Positions 4,095-58,547 of a stretch of DNA of 64,000 nucleotides are shown here, in pieces (the stretch's first letter is position 1; the number at the start of each line of letters is the position of its first letter). The stretch spans positions 461,720 to 525,719 of the forward strand of contig CAZXUH010000001.1 of assembly GCA_964644035.1 (NCBI GenBank), read 5' to 3'. The position numbers and the translations under genes are program-made. Below the pieces are notes generated by a model. It was not told the DNA's origin and did not search any database. It worked only from the letters and a program-made list of their open reading frames with translations. The stretch is from an uncultured Candidatus Saccharibacteria bacterium. GTDB taxonomy: Bacteria > Patescibacteriota > Minisyncoccia > Phycocordibacterales > DAORIS01.

Positions 4095-5297
4095 TTATCT
4101 ATTACGATTTCCATTACCATTGTTGCCTTTGAGTAGTTTTTTCCAATTCCACTTTTTATCGTGTTTCTTGTTGTCATTGTCCGGTGCATCACCCCATGAA
4201 TCTCGGGCATTACCGAAATCAATGTTTTGGATGACTGAACCGTTGCTGATCGTCAATGATGCATAGTCTGCAGTCATCTGATCGATACCTTCATTTTCAT
4301 GGTTGATCAATTCGACACTATATGTACCGTCGGCAAGAGTACCAAATGAATAGTAACCATTGCTGTCAGTGGTTACGCTCTTCAGAGCGCTACCCTGCCA
4401 GTTGGTACCTGTATAGAGTTTGACTGTCCAACCTTGAAAACCAGGTTCGCCGGCATTGCGTACGAGGTTTTTATTGACGTCACGATAGACAATACCGCTG
4501 ATCGAACCTGCTCCAGGATTTGGAGGGGTTGTCGTAGCAGGATTTGTTACCGTACCGCTGACGCAGGCAGTTGTTGCAGTGGTGTTGTTTGCATCACCTC
4601 CGTATACTGCTTGCCAATAATACGTTCCGGCAGTATTAAACTGAACAGAACTAGAATTTGGCACGACACCGTTGGTCACTGTTCGTGTACCAGCATCGAC
4701 TGCTCCTGTCGTACATGCACTGTTGTTGTAGACTCGGAAGACAACCGATCCACCAGCGCCGGCAGTCGCATTGCCCAATGTTGCAGTGCTAAAGACCGAT
4801 GAACCAGTCTGTATCGAACTACTTGAGAGTGCGAGTGAGAGAGTTGTGTTTTGAGCTGACGAAGTCAACATTGCACAACCAGAATTGGCTGGTGAATAGA
4901 CATCACCTTGACCATTGAAGTGAGCGAGATATGAGAGACCTGTACTTGGTACTGTTGTTGCATTTGATTCAGCAACACCGTTGACCAAAGCCACACCCGA
5001 CTGCATGACTCCAGTACCCGTACATGATGTGTTTGGGTAAAGAGTAAAGTCGACGGTACCTGTTGCCATAGAGTTGCTATCAGTCGACGAAGCGACCGAA
5101 GCCCTTGCATGGACCGATGTGCCGATTGCTGCAGACGTGATTACGTTGTGACTTGAGTCATGAACAACGTTGGTCATTGTTGGTGCAACGTCAGCACGCA
5201 CAATAGCTGCCGCGAAGAGCAGTGAGCCAAGTGCGAGAGGTGTGATGAGTAAGAGTGCGTATCTACGGGCTTTATCCGAATAGTTACGTGTATACAT
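4095..5297 (-). CDS. Thr/Ser-rich cell-surface protein with C-terminal SdrD-B/Cna-B-like domain
   Basis: Signal peptide and long T/S/G/N-rich region. C-terminal ISGIVYRDVNKN...SNGYYSF...DGTYSVEL is an SdrD B-like fold motif. Basic K/N-rich tail. Confidence 0.55.
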   Translation of the reverse strand: MYTRNYSDKARRYALLLITPLALGSLLFAAAIVRADVAPTMTNVVHDSSHNVITSAAIGTSVHARASVASSTDSNSMATGTVDFTLYPNTSCTGTGVMQSGVALVNGVAESNATTVPSTGLSYLAHFNGQGDVYSPANSGCAMLTSSAQNTTLSLALSSSSIQTGSSVFSTATLGNATAGAGGSVVFRVYNNSACTTGAVDAGTRTVTNGVVPNSSSVQFNTAGTYYWQAVYGGDANNTTATTACVSGTVTNPATTTPPNPGAGSISGIVYRDVNKNLVRNAGEPGFQGWTVKLYTGTNWQGSALKSVTTDSNGYYSFGTLADGTYSVELINHENEGIDQMTADYASLTISNGSVIQNIDFGNARDSWGDAPDNDNKKHDKKWNWKKLLKGNNGNGNRNR

Positions 5298-32829: not shown

Positions 32830-32904
32830 AGCGGGGTGGAGCAGCAGTAGCTCGCCAGGCTCATAACCTGGAGGTCGTAGGTGCAATTCCTGCCCCCGCT
32901 ACCA
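32830..32904 (+). tRNA. tRNA-Met, initiator-like (anticodon CAT), CCA encoded
   Basis: AGCGGGGTGGAGCAGC...GGCTCATAACCTGG...CCCCCGCTACCA closely resembles bacterial tRNA-fMet. Position 1:72 is an A:U pair. Confidence 0.8.
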
Positions 32905-32984
32905 ATTTTATTCTTTTTTCTTCTTTAGACTCCGTTTGAGAGTTTGTCTTTATCGCTTTTTTTTGTTTAAATACCACCACACAT

Positions 32985-33057
32985 GTCAGGGTAGCTCAGT
33001 CGGTAGAGCACAGGACTCATAAGCCTGGGGTCGTGGGTTCGATCCCCACCCCTGACA
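32985..33057 (+). tRNA. tRNA with CAT anticodon (elongator Met or Ile2)
   Basis: GTCAGGGTAGCTCAGTCGGTAGAGCACAGGACTCATAAGCCTGG...CCCTGACA forms a cloverleaf with one mismatch at 31:39. Confidence 0.75.
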
Positions 33058-33196
33058 CATTAAACTTTAGTCTCCTATTTTCCTTGGGGATCGAAAGCCG
33101 GAAGATAAGCTCCGGGGGAGCTTATCTGAGGCGGGGTCGCGACTTTTGCGAAGCAAAAAGTTGTGACCGATCCTCAACCTCACACTATCTTAGAAA

Positions 33197-35663: not shown

Positions 35664-37679
<2,016 letters not shown>

Positions 37680-37687: not shown

Positions 37688-39028
37688 TTACAGACATAGA
37701 GGGAAATTGTCCAAATCTTCAAATGTTTCTACTTCAAAAAAGTACCCTGGGGCTTCTGTGTCGGGATCGGTATTGTCGTATTTACCAGCTACACCTCTAT
37801 TGAGGAAGTCGCTGCAGTTTGCATATCCATCGCATAGCAATCCTCCAGTTCCAATACCAATAGTGTATACAGTAATACCCTGAGCTTTAGCATCATTGGC
37901 TTCTATGATTGCATCTTGAATAGCATCAGCTCTTCCTTCATCACCCGTGCGATATGTACCAGTCGTGCAATCATCTCCATTTGCATATTCACCATCCTTA
38001 CACAATTCATCTCGGTTTGAACCGTCGCTCAAAATAAGCATGAAGTCTGGATATGAAAGATCGTCGCGATCGTGTACTGGAACATCGGCACCTGTGGCTG
38101 TGAGATTGTAAGAACCGATATTGCCTGCTACCTGACCAGTAAGTTCATATCGTGCTACTCGAATACCTCCAGAAAGGTTGGTACCTCCATTTACATATCC
38201 AAGCTCATCGACGTGATTTTTAAGATCTTCTGAAGAGTCCTTTAGGTGGTCTTTAAGATAAATATGATCTTTGAACCAAATCATACCAATGTTGGTTCCT
38301 GGTGGTGACGGGTTGAGTTCGTCGATGAATCGTTTTGCTGAGGCTTTGAGCAAATCAAGCTCGCTAGGTGGAACTGATTCTTCATTTGGATCTTCTTCAC
38401 CACTGATACTTCCTGAAATATCCATCACAAGCATTGTATCGCCTCTGTTGCTGCAAAGATCTCGCGGAACTGGAGTGTACGTAAGCTTTACTGCTCTTTC
38501 GAGGCGACGAGGACCTGTGGTGTCTGTATTGCGACCGTACGAATCGATAGATGTTTCATTGGTCTCGACATTTTTTTCTACATATACATCACCATCGGGA
38601 GTACCAGGTGTATCTTCGAGAAGACTAAAAGAAACTTTGTATTTTTTGCATTCACCGACACTGTCTTGGCATGGAATACAATCGCCAGAAATATTCTCGC
38701 ATGCAGTTTTATCAGGTTCAGTCGATGTAACGTCTGTGACTGGTATTGCTTCATTGCCAAAACAGCTAATAGTTGCCTTGCCTGCACCGGGCAAGAAAGC
38801 ATTTCTATCGGTAGTAACCTGATCCCAGTATTTTACACACTCAAGACCAGAGTCGGCTGCATAAAATGCCACCTGTGATTCCCTTCCGACAGACGAAATA
38901 ATGAGGTGTTTTGAACTAAGACCAATGATAGAAAATGCCACTGCAAGCAAAAGACTCATCAGAAGGACACCGAAAAGAAGAGTGAATCCTTTATTTGAAT
39001 CTTTTTTCATATCTAAAAAGTATATCAT
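37688..39028 (-). CDS. Pilin-like protein with vWA (MIDAS) domain; putative pilus-tip adhesin (PilY1/TadG-like)
   Basis: N-terminus KGFTLLFGVLLMSLLLAVAF looks like a pseudopilin. MIDAS motif DISGSIS. First gene 5' of the minor-pilin set. Start could be 39028 or 39010; the track starts at a TTG at 39040. Confidence 0.6.
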   Translation of the reverse strand: MIYFLDMKKDSNKGFTLLFGVLLMSLLLAVAFSIIGLSSKHLIISSVGRESQVAFYAADSGLECVKYWDQVTTDRNAFLPGAGKATISCFGNEAIPVTDVTSTEPDKTACENISGDCIPCQDSVGECKKYKVSFSLLEDTPGTPDGDVYVEKNVETNETSIDSYGRNTDTTGPRRLERAVKLTYTPVPRDLCSNRGDTMLVMDISGSISGEEDPNEESVPPSELDLLKASAKRFIDELNPSPPGTNIGMIWFKDHIYLKDHLKDSSEDLKNHVDELGYVNGGTNLSGGIRVARYELTGQVAGNIGSYNLTATGADVPVHDRDDLSYPDFMLILSDGSNRDELCKDGEYANGDDCTTGTYRTGDEGRADAIQDAIIEANDAKAQGITVYTIGIGTGGLLCDGYANCSDFLNRGVAGKYDNTDPDTEAPGYFFEVETFEDLDNFPLCL

Positions 39029-39603
39029 CTTACTTCCCAATCAAAGAGCACTTCTCTAACGGTAAATGTCTTACCTCCAAAAGGTCCTGACGACCACGTA
39101 ACAGTTGCCACGACCTCGGCTTCAGTATCACTAACCAGTTTTATATTGATATGACGAGAATAGTTGGAGTTTGTACCCGTAACATGGTTGTAGCCGTTGG
39201 CACTATCGAGTTTTAGAGTGCAACTAGATCCTGAGCATGGAGTAATACCGACCGCAGAAATATCAGTCACTACGTCGACACTGCAATTTCTTGGTGTATT
39301 GTCCCCGACAGGCTGAATACATTCTACAGGTATGTTCAGGCACCCATCACTCTCATCGCCCCCAGTGAGCCATGGGCAGGTTGTCGTGGCAATATAGTTG
39401 GTATCGCGAATACTTCTGACTTGTTCGATCGCCTCTTCAGCCAAATAAAAGGCGCTGATCTGGTCTCGAGCATAAAACGACGACTGCAAACCCATTTGAG
39501 CAGCACTGAGCGTTGCTCCTATAGCGACTGTAATAATAAAGATCGCCACCAGTGTCTCGATGATTGTAAATCCTTTGGTATTTTTTGTTGAAAATAGTTT
39601 CAT
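39025..39603 (-). CDS. Type IV minor pilin / pseudopilin (prepilin N-terminal methylation domain)
   Basis: KGFTIIETLVAIFIITVAIG is a prepilin cleavage motif (G|FTxxE). Confidence 0.75.
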   Translation of the reverse strand: MKLFSTKNTKGFTIIETLVAIFIITVAIGATLSAAQMGLQSSFYARDQISAFYLAEEAIEQVRSIRDTNYIATTTCPWLTGGDESDGCLNIPVECIQPVGDNTPRNCSVDVVTDISAVGITPCSGSSCTLKLDSANGYNHVTGTNSNYSRHINIKLVSDTEAEVVATVTWSSGPFGGKTFTVREVLFDWEVR

Positions 39604-39604
39604 A

Positions 39605-40168
39605 TTAGCTTGCAGGATTTATTTGGCGCTTTGTCATGAGCGTTTGTATGAAAAATGACGATCTGTTGGTTGTCTTGGTCTGAGCATAGCCCTTGAGTCG
39701 TAGGAATACCTTGTCTTGAAATTCTCGAGGAGAGCCTGTGTCGACACTCAGTACAAACGCTGCATCCTCTATCTTCACTTCATCGGCTGTAAAAGGTTTA
39801 TAAATACCAGCAGCGAGCGTACTTCCCTTTTCCAAACGTCCTGTATGCGCCGATCCATCGGTTTCCATAAATCTATAAATATACTGCTCACCATCGGCGC
39901 CAATATCAGGGGTAAATTGTATAGCTAAACAATCATCATCAGTGCCATCGACACAAGAGAAATCAGTACCAACTCGTATCTCTCTGGCCATGGACTCAAG
40001 TGCAGTGTTGAGGTTGGTCATGACAGAGTTCAATGACTGAGACTTTTGATTGGCATCAATCACTGCCAAGATTGCGGCCGTGCCGGAGATAACGACAACT
40101 GCAAAAAGGGCCACGGAAACAAGAATCTCTATGAGGCTGAAACCGCTGTTTGATGAATTGTGTTTCAT
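39605..40168 (-). CDS. Type IV minor pilin / pseudopilin
   Basis: SGFSLIEILVSVALFAVV is a prepilin motif. Start taken at MKHNSS. Confidence 0.75.
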   Translation of the reverse strand: MKHNSSNSGFSLIEILVSVALFAVVVISGTAAILAVIDANQKSQSLNSVMTNLNTALESMAREIRVGTDFSCVDGTDDDCLAIQFTPDIGADGEQYIYRFMETDGSAHTGRLEKGSTLAAGIYKPFTADEVKIEDAAFVLSVDTGSPREFQDKVFLRLKGYAQTKTTNRSSFFIQTLMTKRQINPAS

Positions 40169-40189
40169 GCTATATGTATTTTCACACAC

Positions 40190-40831
40190 TTAGTTGCAAG
40201 TATCCACCACTTCGATCTGACCTGAGCTCAAAATATTGACCTGTTTTGTCTTAGCGGTCTGTGAAAGCAAACAGATAGTTGCTTGGTTGAAATGCGTGCC
40301 ATTGGCAATAATAATCGCATCTGGATTTGGCCGCATAAAGGTCACGCTCATAGCTGTAATAGAAGGAGATGTATCGTCAGAACACTCTATATCGGCAACA
40401 CCTGAGTCTGGTATGACGCAGAAATTTTGTATCGTATTGCCCGCGGGGAAACTAAAGGTGCGCATAATCGTATCGGATGAATCGTAGCCTTCTATACCTC
40501 CTGCCCCACCAACAATATTGTTGGTATCAGCGAAGAAACTGTAGCGAGCATTGTTTGAAGCAGATAGATAGATTCCATAAGGATTATTGAAAGAACCAAG
40601 ACCATCCACATCCTTGCTACCAAGACCATATGTCTGAGCTTCGCGTATTGAGAGAGCAACGTCGTCGGCCAAACCGGAGAGAATAATATTGTTTCCAAAC
40701 TTTCTTTGATTGGCGACGAGTACTGTCGTCAAAATAGAAAAGATAGCCATGACGATAAGGAGTTCGAGCAAGCTAAATCCAAAAGAGCTTTTTTTAAATA
40801 ACTTTAAAATATGTTTTGAAATATGTTTCAT
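40190..40831 (-). CDS. Type IV minor pilin / pseudopilin (GspH/FimT-like)
   Basis: FGFSLLELLIVMAIFSIL is a prepilin motif. Confidence 0.75.
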   Translation of the reverse strand: MKHISKHILKLFKKSSFGFSLLELLIVMAIFSILTTVLVANQRKFGNNIILSGLADDVALSIREAQTYGLGSKDVDGLGSFNNPYGIYLSASNNARYSFFADTNNIVGGAGGIEGYDSSDTIMRTFSFPAGNTIQNFCVIPDSGVADIECSDDTSPSITAMSVTFMRPNPDAIIIANGTHFNQATICLLSQTAKTKQVNILSSGQIEVVDTCN

Positions 40832-41595
40832 CGTGTGAAAGAAAATAGCATCAATATGTCTTCAATATGTATATTAGCAAAAAATACGAAGGCTGTACCT
40901 ATCACCAAAAACGGTGCAAACGGTATTTCACTTTTCATGTGCAGATTGCCAAGCCGGAAAACCATGACCAAAATACCAATAAGCGCCCCGATCCAAAATG
41001 CGAGCGTGATAGCTGCATAGCCCATATTCATTCCAAGCATCCAGCCCATGGCCAAGCCAAACTTAGCATCGCCAAATCCCATCCACTTCCCTTTTGAAAT
41101 GAGCCAGATAAACAGAAATGGAAATGCTACTGCCGGTCCAGCGACCAAAAGCGATATGGCTTCGCTTGGTATGCGGACAAAAAGCATATTCACAAACAGA
41201 CTGAGAAATGCAAAAGAAAATACCAAACCATCGGGAATAATTTTGTGCTTGAGATCATATACAAAAATCGCTACCAGCAATGACCATACGATTGCATAGT
41301 ATGGAGTACCGATAGTAAATCCAAAAATCTCATATATTCCGACAAAAAGAGCTCCAGTAGTAAACTCTACCAATGGATATTGCCATGATAATCGGCTATT
41401 GCAGCCCGTACAGCGGCCACCCTGAAAGAAGAAACTAAACAATGGTATAAGTTCGTACCAAGCGAGCGTTTTGCCGCAGGAGAGGCATTTTGAGCGGCCA
41501 GTGATTTTCCAACCTGTGTTGTATCTATAGATAACTACATTGAGAAAGCTGCCTATGCATAGACCGATCAGAAAAATAAAGAGTTCAACGATCAT
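40828..41595 (-). CDS. pilD: Prepilin peptidase (A24 family)
   Basis: N-terminal Cys box (CLSCGK...CTGC), polytopic, catalytic Asp region GFGDAKF. Length 255 aa. Confidence 0.85.
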   Translation of the reverse strand: MIVELFIFLIGLCIGSFLNVVIYRYNTGWKITGRSKCLSCGKTLAWYELIPLFSFFFQGGRCTGCNSRLSWQYPLVEFTTGALFVGIYEIFGFTIGTPYYAIVWSLLVAIFVYDLKHKIIPDGLVFSFAFLSLFVNMLFVRIPSEAISLLVAGPAVAFPFLFIWLISKGKWMGFGDAKFGLAMGWMLGMNMGYAAITLAFWIGALIGILVMVFRLGNLHMKSEIPFAPFLVIGTAFVFFANIHIEDILMLFSFTR

Positions 41596-41652
41596 GATGC
41601 AATAATAGTAGCATATATTTTAGTTGACCTACTGGATACCTCCTCCCCTAGC

Positions 41653-41739
41653 CCCTCCTCTAAAGAGGAGGGGAACACTAAAAGGTCTTGTGCTTCAGAG
41701 TCCTCCCTCCTCATTCTGAGGAGGGATTGAGGGAGGAGG
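41653..41739 (+). repeat. GA/CT-rich palindromic repeat element, copy 1
   Basis: 22-bp perfect palindrome CCCCTCCTCTAAAGAGGAGGGG plus a 65-nt tail containing a second inverted repeat CCTCCCTCCTCA...TGAGGAGGGATTGAGGGAGGAGG. Ends 4 nt before the pilin stop. Confidence 0.7.
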
Positions 41740-41743
41740 CATA

Positions 41744-42163
41744 TCACCTACTCACCTTAAAATTGTTTGCCGGAGTGCCGCTATTGCAACTATCTGATGT
41801 CGCTACGGAAGTACTATTTGCATTTTCAAGCGTCGTACCAAGACAATACGAAAGTCTGAGACCACTAGCATTGGTTGTCGGATTGTAGCTATATGCATCC
41901 CCTTGTGGTCCAACAGGCAATGTCGGCACAAAACCTTCTGTCACAAGCTGCATAAGATTAGCTGGATACTGCTTACTTTCACTGTCTGAGTTCTGAAACG
42001 ACGCTTCAAGTGCTATTTGAACCTGCTTAATATCATTGAGTCTTCTTGCATCACGTGCTCTCTGTCGAGCTTCATTGCCCCGAAACATTACTACACCAGA
42101 AAGAACACCGATAATAGCTACTGCAATAAGCAATTCAATAAGAGTAAATCCTTTTTTATTCAT
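41744..42163 (-). CDS. pilA: Type IV pilin (PilA-like)
   Basis: MNKKGFTLIELLIAVAIIGVLSGV is the canonical type IVa prepilin leader. Start moved to 42163 (GAAGGT SD). Confidence 0.85.
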   Translation of the reverse strand: MNKKGFTLIELLIAVAIIGVLSGVVMFRGNEARQRARDARRLNDIKQVQIALEASFQNSDSESKQYPANLMQLVTEGFVPTLPVGPQGDAYSYNPTTNASGLRLSYCLGTTLENANSTSVATSDSCNSGTPANNFKVSR

Positions 42164-42184
42164 ACATATATTGTACCTTCTACC

Positions 42185-42218
42185 TAGACAAAACAAAACA
42201 CCGCTTTTGGCGGTGTTT
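42185..42218 (-). terminator. Rho-independent terminator between the two pilin genes
   Basis: AACACCGC-loop-GCGGTGTT hairpin followed by TTTTGTTTTG on the minus strand. Confidence 0.55.
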
Positions 42219-42253
42219 TTATCTGCAATGAGTAGAGAAAATAGAAAAGCTCT

Positions 42254-42676
42254 CTAGCTACAAGATACTGCGGTACCTGAAGGATTAGCCGTTGTGGCAA
42301 CTGCATTACCCTTTGAGTCAACACACCAATATGATGCAGTATTACTCTTCAACTGGGCTGATAGTACCCAAGCACCAGCAACATCTTTACATACAGTCGC
42401 ACCTGATCCAGCCAACCTTGAGCCTGTGGCCATCTGGTCAATACCACCACCAGTTGAACTGTTATAACAAACGCCTAAGTAACTCTGGCTATTTGAATCA
42501 TAGTAGAGTTCAGCCTGTGCACGTGCATTGTTAACGTTAGACTTAATGGCTGCATCAGAACCCTTTGCGCGAGCAGAGTTGAGTGATGCAAGCACAACCG
42601 CTGATAGGATACCGATGATAGCGATGACCACCAAGAGTTCAATCAGGGTGAAACCTTTTCTAAAAGAAGTTTTCAT
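42254..42676 (-). CDS. pilA: Type IV pilin (PilA-like), second copy
   Basis: MKTSFRKGFTLIELLVVIAIIGILSAV. C-terminal Cys pair for the D-region disulfide. Confidence 0.85.
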   Translation of the reverse strand: MKTSFRKGFTLIELLVVIAIIGILSAVVLASLNSARAKGSDAAIKSNVNNARAQAELYYDSNSQSYLGVCYNSSTGGGIDQMATGSRLAGSGATVCKDVAGAWVLSAQLKSNTASYWCVDSKGNAVATTANPSGTAVSCS

Positions 42677-42832
42677 TTATAAATATATTATCTTATAACT
42701 ATTAAACATCGCGTCCCTACGTTTGGCCATTATCAGCGGCTAAATAAAGGCACGACTGCTTACACGTAATTATATACCGCCTATTGAAGGCGTAAATGGG
42801 TCGTGTGGATAACCAATCACCTTCTCCCCTTT

Positions 42833-42854
42833 CCCCTCCTCTAAAGAGGAGGGG
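42833..42854 (+). repeat. Palindromic repeat, copy 2 (palindrome only)
   Basis: Exact CCCCTCCTCTAAAGAGGAGGGG followed by AAC, as in copy 1. Confidence 0.7.
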
Positions 42855-42918
42855 AACTTTATGTTTTATTGAGGTTATTTTTAGTACTTCTGCATACAAC
42901 GAGAGTCATACTCCTTAC

Positions 42919-43341
42919 ATGAAGAAAATAATAAACAAAAATGAGCTGCTTTTACGCAGACGAGACCTAAGAAAATCAATGACTCACCAAGAGATACTTC
43001 TATGGGAGCATTTTAGACGCAAGCAAATGGGCTATCGCATCCATCGACAATACAGTATCGGATCATTTGTTGTGGATTTTTATTGCCCAAAAGCAAAGCT
43101 TATTATAGAAATCGATGGGTATCACCATAATAAACCAGAAGAAATAGAATACGATACTTTTCGAACAAAATTCTTTGAAGAACTTGGCCTCAATGTAATA
43201 CGTTTTACTAATCAACAAATTAATACCAATCTTGTAAAAGTTCTTACAGCGATTAAAGCTAAACTCCTCTCCTCCAAAGAGGAGAGAGCTTCTACACCTC
43301 CTCCCTCAATCCCTCCTCATCTTGAGGAGGGAGGACTCTGA
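42919..43341 (+). CDS. DUF559 endonuclease-domain protein (Vsr/restriction-endonuclease-like fold)
   Basis: SMTHQEILLWEHFRRKQMGYRIHRQYSIGSFVVDFYCPKAKLIIEIDGYHH...RTKFFEELGLNVIRFTNQQI matches the DUF559 consensus. The 3' end reads into repeat copy 3. Confidence 0.7.
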   Translation: MKKIINKNELLLRRRDLRKSMTHQEILLWEHFRRKQMGYRIHRQYSIGSFVVDFYCPKAKLIIEIDGYHHNKPEEIEYDTFRTKFFEELGLNVIRFTNQQINTNLVKVLTAIKAKLLSSKEERASTPPPSIPPHLEEGGL

Positions 43342-43383
43342 AGTACAGGACCTTTAGTGTTCCCCTCCTCTATAGAGGAGGGG
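43265..43383 (-). repeat. Palindromic repeat, copy 3 (inverted relative to copy 1) plus a degenerate extra palindrome
   Basis: Reverse-complement of 43297..43383 aligns almost base-for-base with copy 1. The palindrome variant is CCCCTCCTCTATAGAGGAGGGG. An extra CTCTCCTCCAAAGAGGAGAG sits at 43265-43289. Confidence 0.65.
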
Positions 43384-43421
43384 TCAGGGGAGGAGGTGTA
43401 AAAAGGAGGTGGCCAGGGTGG

Positions 43422-44630
43422 TTAAAACGCCGACGCAATATTGTAAATAGGCACCAAAACTGCCGCAAGGAGAATACCAACCCCGACACCCAAAAGCACA
43501 ATCATCACTGGTTCGATAAGACTGACCAGTGTATCTACAGCATTGAGCACTTCGCGCTGATAAAAGGTCGACATAGTCTTGAGAATCTTACCAAGCTCAC
43601 CAGTTTCTTCACCGACTTTGACCATTTGAATGAATATGCCTGGGAATTGTGGATATCTTGAGAATACGTCGGAAACCGATGCTCCAGCTTTGACTGCTTC
43701 GATACTATCGAGCAAGATTTTCTGATAGGTATAACTCTCAACAACTGTCGAAGTGATTTCGAGTGTGCGAAGCATTGGTATACCAGCCACGATCATCGTG
43801 TTCATGTTGTCGGCAATACGAGAAAGGAAAAGTTTTCTGTACAAATCACCGATAAAAGGTATTTTGAGTTTCATTTCATCGAACCATGCCTTGCCGGAAT
43901 CGCTTTTTATATATCGGAAGAAAAGAAAACCACAGATCACTAATGCGCCGAGCAAGAAGAATCCATAATTGACCAAAAATGCACTGGCCCCAAGGATAAT
44001 CTTGGTATAAATCGGTATTTCCTGACCAGAATCGGTCAAAATCGTGGCGATCTTAGGAATGACCATCGTGAACATCAGGATCATGACAGTAATGAACGTC
44101 GCGACGATAAATGCCGGATAAATAAAGGCATTGCGAGCCTTCGACGTCACTTCAAATGATCGGTCGAGATAGTCAGCAAGATAGACAAAGGTCTCATTGA
44201 GCTTACCTGATTCTTCACCAGCTCTCACCATGTTTACATAGAAAAGAGAAAATGTTTTTGGATGTTTACCCAAAGCTGCAGAGATAGAACTTCCACCCTG
44301 CAAGTCATCGGCTACGACCGTCAAAATAGTACGTAGTTGTGGCTGTTCTGTCTCAGCAGCCAAAAGTCTGAACACTCGAAGCGCTGAAACTTGCGATTCG
44401 AAAAGGATCGATATCTGACGAGAAAGAATAACGACATCTTTATTGCTAACACGAGAAAAGAAATTGAGATTTCTCTTAAGAATCGAGCCTTCTTCTTGGA
44501 GTGGCTTGATCGAGGTAAGTATCAATCCCCTTCTTTGAAGAGAATTGATGGCAATATCCATCGTGATCGCATCGATCGATCCTTCTTTTGATGTGCCGTC
44601 TGATTCGAGTGTCTTGTATCTAAAAATCAT
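43422..44630 (-). CDS. pilC: Type IV pilus platform protein PilC (GspF family)
   Basis: 402 aa. Two GspF repeats, three TM segments, typical PilC organisation. Confidence 0.85.
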   Translation of the reverse strand: MIFRYKTLESDGTSKEGSIDAITMDIAINSLQRRGLILTSIKPLQEEGSILKRNLNFFSRVSNKDVVILSRQISILFESQVSALRVFRLLAAETEQPQLRTILTVVADDLQGGSSISAALGKHPKTFSLFYVNMVRAGEESGKLNETFVYLADYLDRSFEVTSKARNAFIYPAFIVATFITVMILMFTMVIPKIATILTDSGQEIPIYTKIILGASAFLVNYGFFLLGALVICGFLFFRYIKSDSGKAWFDEMKLKIPFIGDLYRKLFLSRIADNMNTMIVAGIPMLRTLEITSTVVESYTYQKILLDSIEAVKAGASVSDVFSRYPQFPGIFIQMVKVGEETGELGKILKTMSTFYQREVLNAVDTLVSLIEPVMIVLLGVGVGILLAAVLVPIYNIASAF

Positions 44631-44638
44631 GATTTATT

Positions 44639-45703
44639 TTATGAAAGCATGCGCTCGAGAAGCTTAGGATTGACTGAACGATTGTATGCATTCTCGATAG
44701 AAATTTGTCCCTGACGTACAAGCTCGACCAAAGACCGGTTAAGATCGATCATTCCCTGCTGAGAACTTGTTTCGATCACGGTATTGATTTCATGCGTGCG
44801 CTTTTCGCGGATAAGATTGGCGACGGCACCGTTGTTGATAAGCAATTCATAGGCTGGCACAAGACCTCCTGATATACGAGGGATGAGACGCTGAGAAAAG
44901 ATACCAGTAAGGCTGGCTGCAAGCTGCACGCGGATCTGAGCCTGCTGCTCTGCAGGGAAAATGTCGATAATACGTTCGATAGTCTGAGCAGCATTGTTGG
45001 TATGAAGTGTAGAAAATACCAAATGTCCTGTTTCAGCAGCAGTAACAGCTGTTGCGATAGTTTCGAGACCGCGCATTTCACCGATAAGAATCACGTTGAC
45101 GTCTTGTCGGACAGCGTGGACAAGAGCAGTGTTGAAATCTTTTGTATCTATATTGACTTCACGTTGGTTGATAATAGATTTTTTAGGAGTGTAGACATAT
45201 TCCACTGGATCTTCAATGGTAATGATGTGTTCCATTCGATCTTGGTTGATAAGTTCGATAAGTGCAGCAAGTGTCGTCGACTTTCCCTGTCCGACTGGTC
45301 CTACCACAAGAAAGAAACCTTGTTTCTTGCGAGTAAAGATTTCGAGTGAAGGCGGAAGTCCGAGTTCTTCGAGTGTTCTGACATGATTTGGAATCGTTCT
45401 GAGTGCAAGACCAATCCTTCCCTGCGCTACATAGCCATTGCCGCGGAAACGTCCTGTGTCGCCATGAGAATATGCAAAATCTATTTCTTTATTGGCAATA
45501 AACTGCTGCTTGTACTCTGGCGACATGAGAGCATCGACAATACCAAGCATTTGATCTCTAGTGAGTGGTTGAAAATTGAGAAGTGGTACGAGATATCCCG
45601 ATACGCGAATAGAAGGCTGACGATGTTCTGCAAGATGCAGGTCAGAACCACCTTCCTTTATGACAATTTGAATGAGCGAATCGAGAAATTTTTTTGTATC
45701 CAT
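44639..45703 (-). CDS. pilT: Twitching-motility (retraction) ATPase PilT
   Basis: Walker A GPVGQGKST, Asp box, His box. Length 354 aa. AIRNLIRE-type motif near the C-terminus. Confidence 0.85.
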   Translation of the reverse strand: MDTKKFLDSLIQIVIKEGGSDLHLAEHRQPSIRVSGYLVPLLNFQPLTRDQMLGIVDALMSPEYKQQFIANKEIDFAYSHGDTGRFRGNGYVAQGRIGLALRTIPNHVRTLEELGLPPSLEIFTRKKQGFFLVVGPVGQGKSTTLAALIELINQDRMEHIITIEDPVEYVYTPKKSIINQREVNIDTKDFNTALVHAVRQDVNVILIGEMRGLETIATAVTAAETGHLVFSTLHTNNAAQTIERIIDIFPAEQQAQIRVQLAASLTGIFSQRLIPRISGGLVPAYELLINNGAVANLIREKRTHEINTVIETSSQQGMIDLNRSLVELVRQGQISIENAYNRSVNPKLLERMLS

Positions 45704-45733
45704 GCCAAATCTATTTAATGAACGTATTATATC

Positions 45734-46141
45734 CTACAAAGCCTCCGCAATATAGCGCTTGCCTGCCATTATTTCTCTCACTCTGGTTACTACTTCTGAA
45801 GGAATCGTCGTGGCCTTGATAATATAACCATCGACACCGATATCTTTTGCGATTTTTATATCTGGAGATTCAGATTGATTGGTAAGCATGACAATTTTTA
45901 CCTTTGGAAGAAGATTTTCAGTCTTGAGTTTCCTTACAAGTTCGATACCGTCCATGCCTGGCATAACAATATCAACAAGAAGTACATCTGGAGCGTAGCC
46001 GGCTTTTATTTTGTCATAGGCAAGCATTGCATTGTCCGCAGTCTCAATAGCAAATCCACTGTGGTCGAGCTTACGCGCATACATATTAAGTAGGAATTTA
46101 TCATCATCGACGAGCAGTACTTTTTTCTTATCTGCGTCCAT
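45734..46141 (-). CDS. Stand-alone CheY-like response-regulator receiver (PilH/PilG-like)
   Basis: KKVLLVDDDKFLLN...DVLLVDIVMPGMDGIEL...KIVMLT carries the phospho-acceptor Asp and a conserved Lys. Confidence 0.8.
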   Translation of the reverse strand: MDADKKKVLLVDDDKFLLNMYARKLDHSGFAIETADNAMLAYDKIKAGYAPDVLLVDIVMPGMDGIELVRKLKTENLLPKVKIVMLTNQSESPDIKIAKDIGVDGYIIKATTIPSEVVTRVREIMAGKRYIAEAL

Positions 46142-46209
46142 ATGGTTGTAGGTAGTTATAGTATATACCCCAGCTCATACTCATACAACACCGTCAAGAG
46201 GAGAACTGT

Positions 46210-47904
46210 TTATATCTTATCGATTTCTGAAAGGGCAAATTTACCTTCCAAGACCTTGAGCATGGCATCTTCTTGCATCGTGAGCATTCCCTGTTTTCTT
46301 GCGACCCTGACAATCTCATCTTCGGTCGGATTCTTGAGAATTGCATTCTCTAGTTCCCTATCTCGCTCAATAACCTCAAAAACTGCCATACGTCCCCGCG
46401 TACCTGTCGGACAATCAGACGAACTTCCAAGCTCATAGACGCTTGCCGGTATCTTAATATCTTTCCTGACTTCTTCGGCTACACCTTCGAAACGCTTTTC
46501 AATGCGCATTTTGACTGCACCTTCAACTTCTATCTTTGTACCTGCATTTGGACAAAGCACATTGCCAAGTCGCTGGGCAATAGCGAGCTGAAGGGTTGGA
46601 GCAATAAGAAATGGATCGACTCCCATATCGATAAGTCGGGGTATGACGCCCGCAGCATTGTTGGTGTGAATGGTCGAAAGCACAAGGTGGCCAGTAAGCG
46701 CCGCTTGAATAGCAAGCTGAGCAGTTTCTTTGTCTCGAATTTCACCCACCAAGATAACATCTGGGTCCTGACGAAGTGTCGTACGTAGACCTGTAGCAAA
46801 TGTATACCCAATTTCCGGCCAGACCTGAGACTGGCTGACGCCTTCAATATTGTATTCGATCGGATCTTCAAGAGAGAGCACATTCTTCTCTTCCCTATTG
46901 ATCTCATTGAGCATAGAGTACAGTGTTGTCGTCTTACCGGATCCAGTAGGACCTGAAATAAGCACCAAACCGTAGGGCTTATTGATACCTTCCCGAATAA
47001 TCTTGAGATTTTTCTCTGTCATACCTAGAGCCTCGAGAGGCTTAACGCCGCGTTCATGGTCAAGAATTCTCATCACCACCTTTTCACCAAAATATGTTGG
47101 GAAGGTAGAGACACGAAAGTCGATTTTCCTGCCCTCAATACGAGCCGAAAAGCGGCCGTCTTGTGGTTTGCGCTTTTCGTCGAGCTTCATATTGGAAAGA
47201 ATCTTAATACGAGCAACCACCGCCTGATGAACGTTGATCGGAAGCTGCAAACTTGTATTGAGTACACCATCCACTCGGAAACGCACGCGAATATGATCGC
47301 GAAGTGGCTCGACATGCACGTCGGATGCCAAACCTTCTGTCGCATAGCGCAAAATGGTAGCTACGATTTTGGTAATCGGTGCATCTTCTTTGATATCATC
47401 CTCGCTTTTTGCCTGCTCTTCATCGTGTTCCTGACTGACCACTATCCCCGCCTGCTGACGCAGTTCGCTATCAAGATCGGTAAGGGCTTTTGTTACTTCA
47501 CCTGAGAGACCTTTGTAGAGAGCGAGTACTTTGTGAAAATCTTCACGCGTAATAAGAAAAAGTTTGTATGGCAGATTGACCCTCGATGTAATGAAGTTGA
47601 GCGCATTGCGAGCTTCTATATTGTCGGGATCGACAATACCTACTTCAAGCGCACCTTCTTTGACCGAAATCGGTACAAATTCATAATGAAGAGCTGAGTC
47701 TTCGGGAATATAATCGAGCACGTCATACGCAATATCGTCGACATTGACGTTGCGCAGCGGCATATTGAGACGCTCGGCTTTTTGAGCAAGAGATTCTTTT
47801 TCTACTTGAGCCTGAATAGAAAGACCTCCTTCATCTTGGCCAGAAGCCCGCTTAACTTGAAGCGGTCGAGCGCCCTTCTTGTCTTGTGAATTGCTTGTAG
47901 GCAT
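46210..47904 (-). CDS. pilB: Type IV pilus assembly ATPase PilB (GspE family)
   Basis: Walker A GPTGSGKTT, tetracysteine motif CPNAG...C...C. Length 564 aa. Confidence 0.9.
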   Translation of the reverse strand: MPTSNSQDKKGARPLQVKRASGQDEGGLSIQAQVEKESLAQKAERLNMPLRNVNVDDIAYDVLDYIPEDSALHYEFVPISVKEGALEVGIVDPDNIEARNALNFITSRVNLPYKLFLITREDFHKVLALYKGLSGEVTKALTDLDSELRQQAGIVVSQEHDEEQAKSEDDIKEDAPITKIVATILRYATEGLASDVHVEPLRDHIRVRFRVDGVLNTSLQLPINVHQAVVARIKILSNMKLDEKRKPQDGRFSARIEGRKIDFRVSTFPTYFGEKVVMRILDHERGVKPLEALGMTEKNLKIIREGINKPYGLVLISGPTGSGKTTTLYSMLNEINREEKNVLSLEDPIEYNIEGVSQSQVWPEIGYTFATGLRTTLRQDPDVILVGEIRDKETAQLAIQAALTGHLVLSTIHTNNAAGVIPRLIDMGVDPFLIAPTLQLAIAQRLGNVLCPNAGTKIEVEGAVKMRIEKRFEGVAEEVRKDIKIPASVYELGSSSDCPTGTRGRMAVFEVIERDRELENAILKNPTEDEIVRVARKQGMLTMQEDAMLKVLEGKFALSEIDKI

Positions 47905-47909
47905 TTATA

Positions 47910-48245
47910 TTATCTCGCTTTTATAACTGGAGTTGATGGCGCTTTGCCAACAGGAGCAAATGGATTGGATCGGCCTGTCGGTCCTTCAACAAGAGTAATC
48001 GTCGAATCCTGCAGAGTGTTGTAGGCAGCATCGGCAAAAAGGACTGTACCAGCGTCGAGATTGAGTCCTTTGACGCGTTCAAGCTGAGCTTTGATCTCTA
48101 CCCCAGGGAAATTTACATTAAGATCTTCTTCAGTAAGACCAAGTTGATCATTGGTTACAAAATATTTTGTATATACAAAGATGGCACCTACAAGGAGAAC
48201 AATGATACCGACGACGATTGCGAGATTTTTAATAGTACTGTTCAT
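47910..48245 (-). CDS. Small single-TM protein in pilus operon (possible PilP-like component)
   Basis: 111 aa with an N-terminal TM. Located between pilO and pilB. Confidence 0.3.
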   Translation of the reverse strand: MNSTIKNLAIVVGIIVLLVGAIFVYTKYFVTNDQLGLTEEDLNVNFPGVEIKAQLERVKGLNLDAGTVLFADAAYNTLQDSTITLVEGPTGRSNPFAPVGKAPSTPVIKAR

Positions 48246-48246
48246 A

Positions 48247-48786
48247 TTATTTTGCCCAGTAGGTCTTAATAGTAAGGTTAAATGTATACAGCGAATCAGT
48301 ATCGTTTGGACTAAAGGTCAAACCAGTAACATCAGCGAGGCGAAGGTTTGATTCTAAATCCTTGAGGAAATCGGTAAATCTGTCATACGACGTTGCAATA
48401 CTGAAGCTAAGCGCAAAAGCATTGTCATTTTGCTTCTGAGGAGTCTTGGTTGTCGACTGCAAATCAGCAGTGTTGGTAATACGAATGCTTTTAACACCAG
48501 TCGAATACTTCTTGGCGATTTCATTGATCTCGATAACCAAACGTATCGTGTCGATATTCTGAGGGATCATGACATGAAGGCGATCAAGATCCTCTCCAGA
48601 GAAACTGTTTTTTATATTATTGAGCTTGGTGATCTCAACATCGAGTTCCCTCGCCTTTTCGAGAGCATCCTCATACTGAGCTTTGTCAGCCAAGAGTCTC
48701 TGTATGTTTGCATAGAGAGGTTTTGTATAAAAGAAACTACCGGCGATGGCGAGAACGATAAGTATGAGTGGTGCAAGTTGGCGCAT
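48247..48786 (-). CDS. pilO: Pilus assembly protein PilO
   Basis: N-terminal TM plus coiled-coil, 179 aa. Sits in pilM-N-O order. Confidence 0.6.
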   Translation of the reverse strand: MRQLAPLILIVLAIAGSFFYTKPLYANIQRLLADKAQYEDALEKARELDVEITKLNNIKNSFSGEDLDRLHVMIPQNIDTIRLVIEINEIAKKYSTGVKSIRITNTADLQSTTKTPQKQNDNAFALSFSIATSYDRFTDFLKDLESNLRLADVTGLTFSPNDTDSLYTFNLTIKTYWAK

Positions 48787-48790
48787 AAAA

Positions 48791-49456
48791 TTATCTTGTT
48801 GAAGTTGATGTGGTTGTCGTACTTGTCTCCTCGACCTCCGGTGTATCAGAACTTGTAACTTCTATTGCTGACTTCTCCCTTATCAAAGCCTTATACGAAA
48901 TAACAATCGGAGCGACACCTGTCTTCAAAGAAAATGAGACAGTATTGTCTGTTCCGAGCGAAACGTCAGAGAAAAGCGGTCCTACAAAACGCTTGTCGGC
49001 CAATACTTTGTCGGACTGGAGCGCTACGTCAGGGAAACCCTTAGCAAGACCAAACATTGAGAAGGATGGGCTTGTAAGATCATTGTTTTCGTATACAAAA
49101 TTCTTCCACTGCACATTTGGATGAGTTACATCTTCAAGCACTTCAAACAAATTTGATAACGCAAGGTGGCTATTGAGATGATTTGTGGCTACGGCAATTC
49201 TGTCGTTGAGTCTAATAAGTTCTTGGATATTGGGATCGGTAAGTTTTGCCTGATAGACGTCAAGTTCGTCTTTGAGCGCTTCATTACCCCTTACAAGAGT
49301 CTGTTTCCAGAGGAAAAGAAGTCCTGCCAAAACGGCGGCAACTACAAAAAATGCCACGCAAATAAGAGTGAAGATACTGACAGCTGTGCGCGAAGGGAGT
49401 GCTGCATCGGCGGCGCTTTTGCGGGGAATAAAAGACGATTGAAACTTTGGATCCAT
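48791..49456 (-). CDS. pilN: Pilus assembly protein PilN
   Basis: Single TM after a short cytoplasmic N-terminus, then coiled-coil. Immediately downstream of pilM. Confidence 0.6.
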   Translation of the reverse strand: MDPKFQSSFIPRKSAADAALPSRTAVSIFTLICVAFFVVAAVLAGLLFLWKQTLVRGNEALKDELDVYQAKLTDPNIQELIRLNDRIAVATNHLNSHLALSNLFEVLEDVTHPNVQWKNFVYENNDLTSPSFSMFGLAKGFPDVALQSDKVLADKRFVGPLFSDVSLGTDNTVSFSLKTGVAPIVISYKALIREKSAIEVTSSDTPEVEETSTTTTSTSTR

Positions 49457-49558
49457 AAATTACTCTCAAAATTATACCACGGCTATATCCAATGCATATG
49501 GGGATATACATGCTTTATCAACAGTACAAAGATAAAAACAGAGATAGAAGAAGAGAAA

Positions 49559-50668
49559 TTAACCCAATTCCTGCAAACGACGCAGTGCTATACCAACAGC
49601 AATGGTAAATTCCGGACCAGTAACCTTGAGTACAGATTCAAGAAAGGCTGGCGTTTCTATTTTTGAAAATGGATCGCCTGGAATAACGTCATTTTCCAGA
49701 CCTTTTCGAGATGCTTCGATAAATCCACGCAATTTGACTCCCCCGCCGACGAGATAGACTCTGCTTAGATTTTTATTGTATTTTTTCTGATAGTTGAGTA
49801 TGACACGATCTGCTTCTGAGAAAATAAAATTGAGACTGGTATTGAAAATACTTTGCATGACACTTTCCTGACCTTGCTTTGGACTGACCAATCCCCTTTT
49901 CAAGAGTTCTGCTTGCTCAATACTTACCCCGAGTGCCGAAGAGAGACCGAGTGTCAGATCCTGAGAGCCTTTGTTGATCGTATGGGAATTGCGAATGATG
50001 CCATGCTCGATAATATAGAGCTTCGTCGATGCCGCACCCATGTCAAAGATCATGACGGGCGAAGAATCGTTCTCAAGCAACGCTCTAATAGCACTGAAGA
50101 TCTCTATTTCAAAAAATGACGCATGGAGATCGGCTGTTTTGACGATTTCCTGATATTTAGTGAGCGTGTCATTGTGAATAGCGACGACCAAAACATCGAT
50201 TTTATCTTTTTTTAAGGAATCCTTCACATCGCCTTCGTTAAAATTGGGTTCGTCCTTGGGACGAGGGATGACAGACCAGTCGAGGCTGACCTCGGAGATC
50301 GGTACGGGAATATATTTTCTAGCTTCAATTGGAATAATATTTGCCAATTCCTTGCTTGATACAGCGGGTATCTCTATGGTCGATACAAGACTCGACGAAA
50401 ACGGTATTGCAATACCACACGTTTTTGATGTGGCCTTACATTCACGAAGAAGATCACTGAGAGCTTTACCCACATCGGCTGCCGGCATATTGGTCGCTCG
50501 GCCGATTTCAGTATGAGCATAGGGTCCAAGAGCCAATTCACCGTATGTCTCAAGAAAAGCCTTGCCACCCTTGCGCTTGAGCTGGACAACCTTGATCGAA
50601 GAAGAGCCGATGTCTATTCCTAGAACTGACTGCTCTCTCGACTCGAACATATTAGATAAAAATCCCAT
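49559..50668 (-). CDS. pilM: Pilus assembly ATPase-fold protein PilM (actin-like)
   Basis: 369 aa. GIDIGSSSIKVVQL phosphate-1 motif of actin/FtsA-like fold. MGAASTKLYIIE. Confidence 0.8.
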   Translation of the reverse strand: MGFLSNMFESREQSVLGIDIGSSSIKVVQLKRKGGKAFLETYGELALGPYAHTEIGRATNMPAADVGKALSDLLRECKATSKTCGIAIPFSSSLVSTIEIPAVSSKELANIIPIEARKYIPVPISEVSLDWSVIPRPKDEPNFNEGDVKDSLKKDKIDVLVVAIHNDTLTKYQEIVKTADLHASFFEIEIFSAIRALLENDSSPVMIFDMGAASTKLYIIEHGIIRNSHTINKGSQDLTLGLSSALGVSIEQAELLKRGLVSPKQGQESVMQSIFNTSLNFIFSEADRVILNYQKKYNKNLSRVYLVGGGVKLRGFIEASRKGLENDVIPGDPFSKIETPAFLESVLKVTGPEFTIAVGIALRRLQELG

Positions 50669-50673
50669 AATAT

Positions 50674-51375
50674 ATGAAAAGTATAGCAGAAAAAGGCGTA
50701 TTAGGCAGGCTTGGCAATACGATCTATAAAAGGATCAGTGCGCTATCTGCCAGCATATATACATCTATTCTCGATTTTTGTTTCGGTGAGGAAATATTTG
50801 GAGAATATTCGTATGATTTACTAAAGCAAAAATCAGCTCATGTACAGCCCACTTCGCACCCACAGATGTATGCATGTCTTCCCTACCAAGATCCGGTGGT
50901 CAAAAAAGCTATTTTTGAAATCAAATACAGAAAGAATAAAAGATTGGCCAAAATATTCGGCCTGCTATTAATGGAAAAAATAATTGAAGCATGCAAAGAA
51001 CAAAAAGAAATCGTGCTTATTCCCTTGCCTGCCCATAAAAAGAGACTGAGCGAATATGGTTTCAATCAAACACTACTTTTGTGCGAAGGAATACTCGCAC
51101 ATGCACATACATACAGCAATATTAGTTTTTCTATATGCACTATTCTCAAATATAAAAAAGAAAGTAGCGATCACAAACTCATGAATCGCGAAGAACGTAT
51201 TTCTCATTCAGAAAATCAGTTCATTGTTTCTGAAAAAGATACAAAATACATTGCTGGCAAAAATATTATCTTAATAGATGACGTGATCACGACCGGATCG
51301 ACATGTCTCGATGCTATGAGAGCATGTGAAGTTGCAGCACCTACACATATCGTAGCGTTTGCAGTCGGACACTAG
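50674..51375 (+). CDS. comF: ComF-family phosphoribosyltransferase-domain protein (competence protein ComFC-like)
   Basis: C-terminal PRTase motif IILIDDVITTGST. Length 233 aa. Divergent from pilM by 5 bp. Confidence 0.7.
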   Translation: MKSIAEKGVLGRLGNTIYKRISALSASIYTSILDFCFGEEIFGEYSYDLLKQKSAHVQPTSHPQMYACLPYQDPVVKKAIFEIKYRKNKRLAKIFGLLLMEKIIEACKEQKEIVLIPLPAHKKRLSEYGFNQTLLLCEGILAHAHTYSNISFSICTILKYKKESSDHKLMNREERISHSENQFIVSEKDTKYIAGKNIILIDDVITTGSTCLDAMRACEVAAPTHIVAFAVGH

Positions 51376-58464: not shown

Positions 58465-58537
58465 GCGCGTGTAGCTCAGTTGGTAGAGCAGCCGTCTTAT
58501 ACACGGCCGGTCCCTGGTTCGAGTCCAGGCACGCGCA
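58465..58537 (+). tRNA. tRNA-Ile (anticodon TAT, decoding AUA)
   Basis: GCGCGTGTAGCTCAGTTGGTAGAGCAGCCGTCTTATACACGGC...CACGCGCA. Anticodon stem is perfect, loop is CU-UAU-AC with A37. Confidence 0.75.
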
Positions 58538-58547
58538 CCGATAGAAG

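Follow-up and report, generated by a model that had tools for sequence, protein, structure and literature searches.

In the Saccharibacteria, type IV pili are encoded at a locus named T4P-1 in Nanosynbacter lyticus TM7x and T4P1 in Southlakia epibionticum. In both organisms this first pilus locus is essential and tied to twitching (PMC11623550, PMC10633639), and homologous Saccharibacteria loci produce visible pili that drive the movement (PMC11623550). Pilus loci of this type have been described as widespread across the Candidate Phyla Radiation (CPR, Patescibacteria), where the lack of the outer-membrane secretin PilQ and of the lipoprotein PilP is reported to be general (PMC6744442). Here we analyze positions 37688-51375 of a 64,000-nucleotide stretch of contig CAZXUH010000001.1 (hereafter the window), derived from an uncultured bacterium of the same phylum-level group. 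This region very probably represents a conserved Patescibacteria pilus locus, type IVa-like and devoid of a secretin, with a predicted tip pilin that carries a von Willebrand factor A (vWA) domain. It shares with T4P-1 the components PilB, PilT, PilC, PilM/N/O and PilD, five pilins and the lack of a secretin. Also shared is a PilX-type pilin whose signal peptide is non-canonical and whose C-terminus bears an additional domain, for which a role as tip adhesin has been proposed in the case of PilX1 and PilX2 of T4P-1 (PMC11623550). The difference lies in the accessory module, i.e. a vWA domain with a metal ion-dependent adhesion site (MIDAS) in the window versus a beta-jelly-roll or beta-propeller in T4P-1.

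The coupling of a pilin to a vWA domain has described counterparts as well. PilB of Streptococcus sanguinis (PDB 7B7P) is a demonstrated two-module vWA pilin adhesin (PMC8179133), in which, as in the window, a pilin module is followed by a C-terminal vWA domain with MIDAS, in a monoderm-type pilus with PilT. The two proteins are only 14-15% identical, with no relationship detectable by sequence, and the carrier in the window is a larger PilX/GspK-type module that lacks the glutamate at position 5 (Glu5). The class III signal peptide of S. sanguinis PilB includes Glu5. In diderm type IVa pili and type II secretion systems (T2SS), PilX homologues and GspK are known Glu5-less subunits, modelled at the very tip of the filament (PMC7541494); like the vWA pilin in the window, they are the last of a four-gene minor-pilin set and the predicted filament cap. 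While a vWA-containing PilY1 sits on PilX at the tip in diderms, the window locus joins vWA and PilX-type pilin covalently in one protein, and it has neither a PilY1 gene nor an outer-membrane secretin. The TadG pseudopilins of Tad/Flp systems also combine a pilin-like N-terminus with vWA, and the weak matches of our vWA profile include proteins with PF13400 and VWA that are named TadG by JGI. However, TadA, TadB, TadC and Flp pilins are missing from the window locus and the N-terminal family differs, the likeness being limited to the vWA domain. Lastly, the ComG pilus of monoderms is, like the pilus in the window, a secretin-less type IV filament, the likeness extending to an adjacent ComF-family gene and one weak ComGE match among the minor pilins. 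The Com system is not known to have PilT or PilM/N/O, and the ATPase and platform protein in the window score below the ComGA and ComGB cutoffs.

Gene order and conservation of the pilus locus

By combining a map of open reading frames (ORFs) with scans using hidden Markov models (HMMs), we obtained the minus-strand order pilM-pilN-pilO-small transmembrane (TM) gene-pilB-receiver-pilT-pilC-pilA2-pilA1-pilD, followed by three minor pilin genes with Glu5 and the gene of the 440-residue vWA pilin. This is a complete monoderm-type type IVa pilus gene set with a retraction ATPase. PilB and PilC, PilT, PilM/N/O, and PilD together with pilins bearing class III signal peptides are all present, while PilQ and PilP were found neither here nor in a scan of 30 further ORFs of the window. 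An earlier reading of the DNA, made from the letters and their translations (hereafter the sequence-only reading), had listed these genes and proposed a retractable type IV pilus. Every gene was recovered at the positions and on the strand it had been given, and the proposed apparatus is borne out by PilB, PilT, PilC, PilM/N/O, PilD, two PilA pilins, four minor pilins and the absence of a secretin from the ORFs scanned. In the HMM searches, VWA, N_methyl, T2SSE, T2SSF, PilM, PilO and Pribosyltran were matched directly, and PilN via orthologues only. The minus-strand run, which had been called contiguous, is indeed there, but it is broken by a plus-strand DUF559 ORF (42919-43341) between pilC and pilA2.

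The same DNA was also found in an assembly of run SRR14271360, on a contig of 26.7 kb. Scanning one genome per prokaryotic species for the conserved PilX motif, with a profile from a five-sequence PilX alignment, returned 80 loci, the window's own genome not being represented. All of these are from Patescibacteria metagenome-assembled genomes (MAGs), labelled Kaiserbacteria, Paceibacterota/Parcubacteria, Zambryskibacteria, Taylorbacteria, Wolfebacteria or 'Saccharibacteria', and the sequence-only assignment of the organism to the CPR agrees with these 80 out of 80 loci. When the window proteins were compared with the ORFs of the loci by BLASTP, the nearest genome representatives, labelled Paceibacterota, Saccharibacteria, Taylorbacteria or Patescibacteria group, were about 60-65% identical in PilB, PilT, PilC and LigA. 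A metagenome scan with PilM as the query contributed 80 additional loci (L082-L161), among them the closest relative, Ga0163144_10017616, with a PilM that is 81% identical. In the 80 genome loci, the order pilM-pilN-pilO-small TM-pilB-REC-pilT-pilC-pilA(1-5 copies)-pilD-mpH-mpJ-mpI-pilX-ligA is nearly invariant, and it recurs across the 80 metagenome loci; here, REC denotes the receiver and mpH, mpJ and mpI the three minor pilins with Glu5. Since this order recurs in about 160 Patescibacteria loci, we regard it as a conserved CPR locus of the 'T4P-1' type already studied in Saccharibacteria.

The region at 37688-51375 is a cluster for a retractable type IV pilus of the kind that is standard in the ultra-small Patescibacteria, and its sole unusual trait is that the expected cap pilin bears a fast-evolving metal-dependent adhesion (vWA) domain. 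The locus is a recognizable variant of known systems and not a novel type of machine. Gene content, synteny, motifs and fold form the demonstrated part of this explanation.

A pilin with a C-terminal vWA module

The vWA protein is encoded at 37688-39010 on the minus strand (VWA, E=3.5e-10). Its start is most likely the ATG at 39010, which yields 440 residues, and not the TTG at 39040; the former is preferred because genes predicted independently on this DNA include one of 440 residues at this place, and an exact-product look-up of the 450-residue TTG version returned no match. The protein consists of two modules on the minus strand, i.e. a PilX/GspK-type pilin module of residues 1-182 (38465-39010), recognized from its Glu5-less leader, an exhaustive homologue search and an AlphaFold2 model, and a vWA module of residues ~192-440 (37691-38437), with the MIDAS residues D197, S199, S201, T277 and D329.

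When 1.84 billion cluster representatives were searched exhaustively with HMMER, 2933 matches were obtained at E<=1e-3, 633 of them at E<=1e-10, while less exhaustive searches had found five (a word-indexed search with the whole protein) and nine (a vWA-only profile). The top 150 HMMER matches were mostly stand-alone proteins of 150-200 residues that cover residues ~5-178 only. As most family members stand alone in this way, the N-terminal 182 residues can be regarded as an autonomous and widespread module, and they are assigned to a CPR-wide family of the PilX/GspK type. The leader reads MKKDSNKG/FTLLF (the slash marking the predicted cleavage point), and the 141 family members with a recognizable G/(F/x)(T/S)L leader all lack Glu at +5, where F, I, L, Y, V, M, S or T is found instead. 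The Pfam model PilX_N is matched at E<0.001 by 8 of 39 long family members (best E=1.4e-6), and homologues of the module are annotated as PilX by both NCBI and JGI.

Prepilin peptidase cleavage depends on the glycine at -1, not on Glu5. As for the signal peptide of class III on which the sequence-only reading had staked its pilin assignment, Gly-1 and Phe+1 are present, but Glu5 and a match to N_methyl are not. The pilin nature of the protein itself was confirmed by the prepilin-type leader together with the AlphaFold2 model, in which residues 7-63 form a single N-terminal helix of 57 residues followed by a six-stranded sheet, mostly with a predicted local distance difference test (pLDDT) score above 90, in the 'lollipop' shape of pilins. 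This model was built on an alignment of 104 sequences; one of five sequences gave a pLDDT of 42.9. With the whole model as the query, Foldseek placed S. sanguinis PilB (7B7P) first (E=5e-8, 355 aligned columns), and other pilus-tip adhesins were also among the best structural matches. The protein thereby has the modular (bimodular) type IV pilin architecture sensu Raynaud et al. 2021, with a pilin module at 1-182, VWA at 192-440 and 7B7P as its top structural match. As it has no detectable N_methyl motif, the survey of modular pilins that was based on InterPro (PMC8179133) may have missed it, though the concept fits. The vWA pilin joins two known ideas, namely modular pilins, including those with vWA and many CPR examples (PMC8179133), and PilX-type cap pilins of the CPR that bear accessory domains (PMC11623550).

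The MIDAS motif DxSxS...T...D is complete, and its five residues are invariant in 14 vWA-bearing relatives; we therefore predict that the module binds its ligand in a metal-dependent manner. Other long family members carry C-termini with, e.g., Malectin, ConA-like lectin, DUF2341, PKD, CBM6, CBM35-type and discoidin domains. The vWA fusion itself was found in 2 of 81 genome loci, PilX being without vWA in the other 79, and in at least 22 clusters at 50% identity, a count biased upward because the query contained the vWA domain. This variety of C-terminal domains on a shared PilX module indicates that the cap pilin is a conserved carrier, whose ligand-binding module can be exchanged. The vWA protein is assigned to the Glu5-less PilX/GspK class that the literature places at the filament tip; by analogy it would sit there too, and its vWA module could bind a host, as the sequence-only reading had also proposed.

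A comparison with the closest relative, Ga0163144_10017616, adds to this picture. Identities are high for LigA and the receiver (84% each), PilB (83%), PilT (82%) and PilC (78%), lower for PilD (67%), PilO (61%), PilN (56%) and the small TM protein (49%), and for the pilins they amount to 57-62% (minor pilins), 59% (PilA1), 51% (PilA2) and 59% (PilX module). No other part of the locus has diverged nearly as much as the vWA module (28%), which nonetheless retains its MIDAS site, a pattern that fits, without proving, an exposed ligand-binding surface.

The vWA pilin contains 12 cysteines, and several disulfides could therefore form. Elsewhere in the window, at 20180-21859 on the minus strand, is a protein with DsbD-type transmembrane, Redoxin and Thioredoxin_10 domains, which may be relevant to the disulfides of Cys-rich surface proteins such as this pilin. 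Another candidate surface or adhesion protein, of 400 residues and with SdrD_B and bacterial Ig-like domains, is encoded at 4095-5297 (minus strand).

Machine subunits and inserted elements

The genes of the machine proper are all on the minus strand. The extension ATPase PilB (46210-47904; T2SSE, E=2e-119, plus MshEN) has a readable Walker A motif, GPTGSGKT. Its best NCBIfam match is TIGR02538 PilB with 493.6 bits, below the equivalog cutoff of 675.65, and the GspE and PilB families score nearly equally. In contrast, the retraction ATPase PilT (44639-45703) exceeds its cutoff, with 420.7 bits for TIGR01420 PilT/PilU against 319.1, and shows a Walker A GPVGQGKST and an AVANLIRE motif. The platform protein PilC (43422-44630) matches T2SSF in two stretches (E=2.5e-53), and its top NCBIfam matches are the GspF (best) and PilC families. 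A stand-alone, CheY-like receiver (45734-46141; Response_reg, E=5.5e-23), with the acidic pocket (DD, D) and the T and K residues present, has a conserved place in the operon, between the ATPases for extension and for retraction: it was found between pilB and pilT in 45/47 and 36/49 related loci, and it is as conserved as the motors with respect to the closest relative.

Upstream of pilB is the alignment subcomplex. PilM (49559-50668), an actin-like cytoplasmic alignment protein, is matched by PilM_2 (E=4.3e-35) and by TIGR01175 (164 bits, cutoff 133), while PilO (48247-48786) is just above the Pfam PilO cutoff (23.1 bits versus 22) and keeps its position in related loci. The pilN-like gene (48791-49456) encodes a bitopic protein whose assignment, as made in the sequence-only reading, holds at the level of the family. 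The ORF itself had no HMM match, and the family profile had none among PDB sequences, but 11 of 20 orthologues match Pfam PilN (best E=1.8e-4), and in the family alignment the N-terminal motif S-F-I-P-K, ahead of a TM helix, is invariant. We take this motif to resemble the PilM-binding N-terminus of PilN. Between pilO and pilB, a small bitopic protein of 111 residues (47910-48245) ends in a C-terminal G-R-x-N-P-F motif that is invariant in the alignment, and an ORF with G[RK]x[ND]PF occupies the same place in 77 of 89 loci. It has no relatives in Pfam or PDB, and Pfam PilP was matched by none of 27 members. This GRxNPF protein is possibly an uncharacterized subunit of the pilus machine, perhaps an extra one of the alignment complex; a PilP-like role, as a truncated form of PilP, which has an RDPF-like motif, would be only a guess.

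The prepilin peptidase PilD (40828-41595, minus strand; A24_N_bact, E=1.8e-28, and Peptidase_A24, E=8e-12) contains a GFGDAK motif and CxxC...CxxC pairs. Five pilins score 26-38 bits on N_methyl, for which the cutoff is 21.2. Two of these are of the PilA type, i.e. PilA2 (42254-42676, minus strand; G/FTLIE, 35.5 bits) and PilA1 (41744-42163, minus strand; MNKKG/FTLIE, 37.6 bits), the latter also predicted by an independent gene call of 139 residues. A promoter-like site, TTTACG-16-TATAAT, is situated upstream of pilA2 (42769-42796, minus strand) and agrees with the consensus at 10 of 12 positions; its -35 and -10 hexamers and the 5' untranslated region are conserved in the closest relative. 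Together with a terminator-like hairpin after pilA2 and before pilA1 (42195-42219, minus strand), this suggests that pilA2 is a separately and highly expressed gene, encoding the putative major pilin.

The three minor pilins with Glu5 (all minus strand) are tentatively labelled GspH/FimU-like (40190-40831; 30.7 bits on N_methyl, weak GspH match at E=9e-4), GspJ/PilW-like (39605-40168; 26.8 bits, GspJ at E=3.4e-6, below cutoff) and GspI/PilV/ComGE-like (39025-39603; 26.4 bits, ComGE, GspI and PilV at E ~1e-5, below cutoff). Their leaders, which had been described as G/F(T/S)L(I/L)E, read G/FSLLE, G/FSLIE and G/FTIIE, respectively, and are of that type. The labels are tentative because the sub-threshold matches mostly cover the N-terminal helix. 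The position of the GspH-like pilin is conserved in 77 of 81 loci, and the order mpH-mpJ-mpI-pilX is kept in about as many (~77/81).

Between pilC and the pilA2 promoter sits a cassette with a DUF559 gene of the Vsr-like endonuclease fold (42812-43415, plus strand; DUF559, E=1.3e-29). The ORF is bracketed by 40-nucleotide inverted repeats (42818-42857 and 43359-43398, 90% complementary), both of which contain the perfect palindrome CCCCTCCTCT-NN-AGAGGAGGGG. Furthermore, a double-hairpin repeat of about 105 nucleotides occurs as a solo, unstranded copy between pilA1 and pilD (41640-41735), as a second, inverted copy at 43290-43398, which makes up one end of the cassette, and as a partial copy at 42818-42857. 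This element, which resembles a miniature inverted-repeat transposable element, carries the palindromes CCCCTCCTCT-NN-AGAGGAGGGG and TCCCTCCTCA-NNN-TGAGGAGGGA. In the 161 loci of other contigs there was no exact match to the former, the only matches being in L001, which is a copy of the window DNA. The closest relative has just 115 nucleotides between pilC and pilA2 and 30 between pilA1 and pilD; for this reason, cassette and repeat are considered lineage-specific insertions and not pilus components, and the DUF559 insertion looks like a small mobile cassette. In the pilus mRNA, the hairpin element might serve for attenuation or for RNA stability.

Outside the locus, ARAGORN identified a tRNA-Ile with the anticodon TAT at 58465-58539 (plus strand), which is uncommon in bacteria, and two neighboring tRNA genes with CAT anticodons at 32830-33058 (plus strand).

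Alternative readings, proposed mechanism and significance

Divergent from pilM, with start codons 5 nucleotides apart (50668/50674), is a ComF-family phosphoribosyltransferase (PRTase)-like gene (50674-51375, plus strand; TIGR00201 comF, E=2.8e-20; PRTase_2 and Pribosyltran above cutoff). A divergent comF-like gene adjoins pilM in 69 out of 69 metagenome loci with at least 700 nucleotides of upstream sequence. At the other end, 17 nucleotides downstream of the vWA pilin gene, lies ligA for an NAD-dependent DNA ligase (35664-37670, minus strand; DNA_ligase_aden, E=3.8e-91, and further ligase domains). Of 81 Patescibacteria loci, 78 have ligA immediately downstream of pilX, and this DNA-repair gene is thus a fixed 3' neighbor of the pilus operon.

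The synteny of comF and ligA is what suggests a link to DNA uptake, and it could even be that the filament is mainly a competence pilus that captures extracellular DNA for ComEC, ComFC and DprA, with adhesion as a secondary function. Such a role would suit CPR bacteria, which lack nucleotide synthesis and of which certain Saccharibacteria are naturally competent (PMC6744442, PMC10633639), and the TM7x authors speculate that T4P-1 may import DNA (PMC11623550). We nevertheless find it rather unlikely. The architecture is type IVa-like, with PilT and PilMNO, and the scores for ComGA (262 bits, cutoff 300) and ComGB (128 bits, cutoff 240) are also below those for PilB/GspE and GspF; a Com-type pilus, one of the two names under which the sequence-only reading had presented the locus, was rejected on these grounds. 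Its claim of full machinery for DNA uptake was not borne out either, as the search for comEC and dprA that it had proposed, widened to comEA, found none of the three among the 30 other window ORFs scanned. As for the ComF gene, the PRTase domain and the divergent orientation stand, but the protein reaches 73 bits on TIGR00201 (cutoff 233), over model positions 35-169 only. Moreover, the N-terminal CxxC zinc finger is absent from it and from 67 of 69 orthologues, the other two having CxxC pairs. A tip with vWA and MIDAS is, in addition, typical of protein-ligand adhesion and not of DNA binding, and in Southlakia comEC is dispensable whereas the type IV pili are essential (PMC10633639).

Another possibility concerns the vWA module itself, which might, like its counterpart in Pseudomonas PilY1, serve in mechanosensing or assembly control instead of host adhesion and signal surface contact, perhaps through the receiver. 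The PilY1 vWA domain has been implicated in force-dependent surface sensing (PMC9210963, PMC8806160), and both the receiver as a conserved part of the operon and the potential for several disulfides among the 12 cysteines would be compatible with such a function. That PilX comes without vWA in 79 of 81 genome loci, however, marks vWA as an accessory module and not as part of a control core. The lectins and carbohydrate-binding modules that take its place elsewhere in the family point to ligand binding, and the identity of 28% with the closest relative agrees with a ligand surface that is diversifying; a sensing role is accordingly given little credence. Finally, a T2SS-like pseudopilus that exports proteins, with the vWA pilin as a GspK-like, substrate-contacting cap, is highly improbable and was rejected: in spite of the weak minor-pilin matches being best for GspH, GspI and GspJ, the preference of PilC for GspF, the near-equal GspE and PilB scores of PilB and a cap pilin that lacks Glu5 like GspK, PilT is above its curated cutoff and T2SS has no retraction ATPase, PilM/N/O take the place of GspL/M/C, neither the GspD secretin nor GspC/L/M were found in the locus or the 30 other window ORFs, and the homologous Saccharibacteria loci make visible twitching pili (PMC11623550).

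The interpretation as a retractable pilus with a vWA-bearing adhesive tip, which we prefer, has several points weighing against it. On the N-terminal 51-position model PilX_N (PF14341), the vWA pilin itself is sub-threshold (15.5 bits, E=0.017, cutoff 25.5), in a match that spans positions 1-51 of 51, and it has no N_methyl match; the profile of its PilX module had no sequence relative among the solved structures in PDB, and the vWA part of the AlphaFold2 model is of moderate confidence only (pLDDT 50-87). The labels GspH, GspI and GspJ are based on the sub-threshold helix matches mentioned above. The location at the tip and the binding of a host are proposed by analogy. The window further offered no histidine kinase partner for the receiver among the 30 other ORFs scanned, and the same ORFs were those without comEC, comEA and dprA. 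The essentiality of the Southlakia pili has been judged unrelated to competence (PMC10633639). Lastly, the DUF559 cassette and the hairpin repeats inside the operon could perturb co-transcription.

In the mechanism that we propose for the vWA-tipped pilus, PilD would cut the prepilins after the leader glycine, presumably including the Glu5-less pilin. The three minor pilins with Glu5 and the PilX-type pilin would then come together on the PilC/PilMNO platform as a priming complex, beneath which the major pilin, probably PilA2, would be polymerized by PilB. As PilB would add the major pilin below it, the priming complex would end up at the filament tip. With its C-terminal vWA domain and complete MIDAS, the PilX-type pilin would there display a metal-ion-dependent ligand-binding module. 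Retraction of the bound pilus by PilT would pull the cell to the bound target, most plausibly the surface of a host cell, and the receiver, encoded between the two motor genes pilB and pilT, probably serves to switch between extension and retraction or to bias the one over the other. The flanking comF-like gene and ligA suggest, without proof, that the same pilus may also feed DNA uptake. A more tentative extension, which we would on the whole rather doubt, sees the locus as a single 'attach-and-acquire' module, made up of the retractable pilus, a receiver that controls the motors, the hitherto undescribed GRxNPF membrane subunit, and flanking comF-like and ligA genes linking DNA import and repair to pilus retraction, with the exchangeable PilX C-terminus setting which host can be bound. 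If this were true, the vWA variant would mark a lineage that recognizes a host protein ligand rather than a glycan.

The basic picture remains unchanged, since type IV pili are already well known, as are modular pilins and tip adhesins with vWA. What the comparison does supply is four conserved parts or neighbors of the CPR pilus operon, i.e. the stand-alone receiver, the GRxNPF protein, the divergent comF-like gene and the downstream ligA, none of which is mentioned in the text of PMC11623550. For host recognition by uncultivated CPR episymbionts, a cap pilin with an exchangeable C-terminal module is a concrete, testable candidate. The PilX C-terminus is a useful marker for mining CPR genomes and, being exchangeable and diverging far faster than the machine, a plausible determinant of host range.

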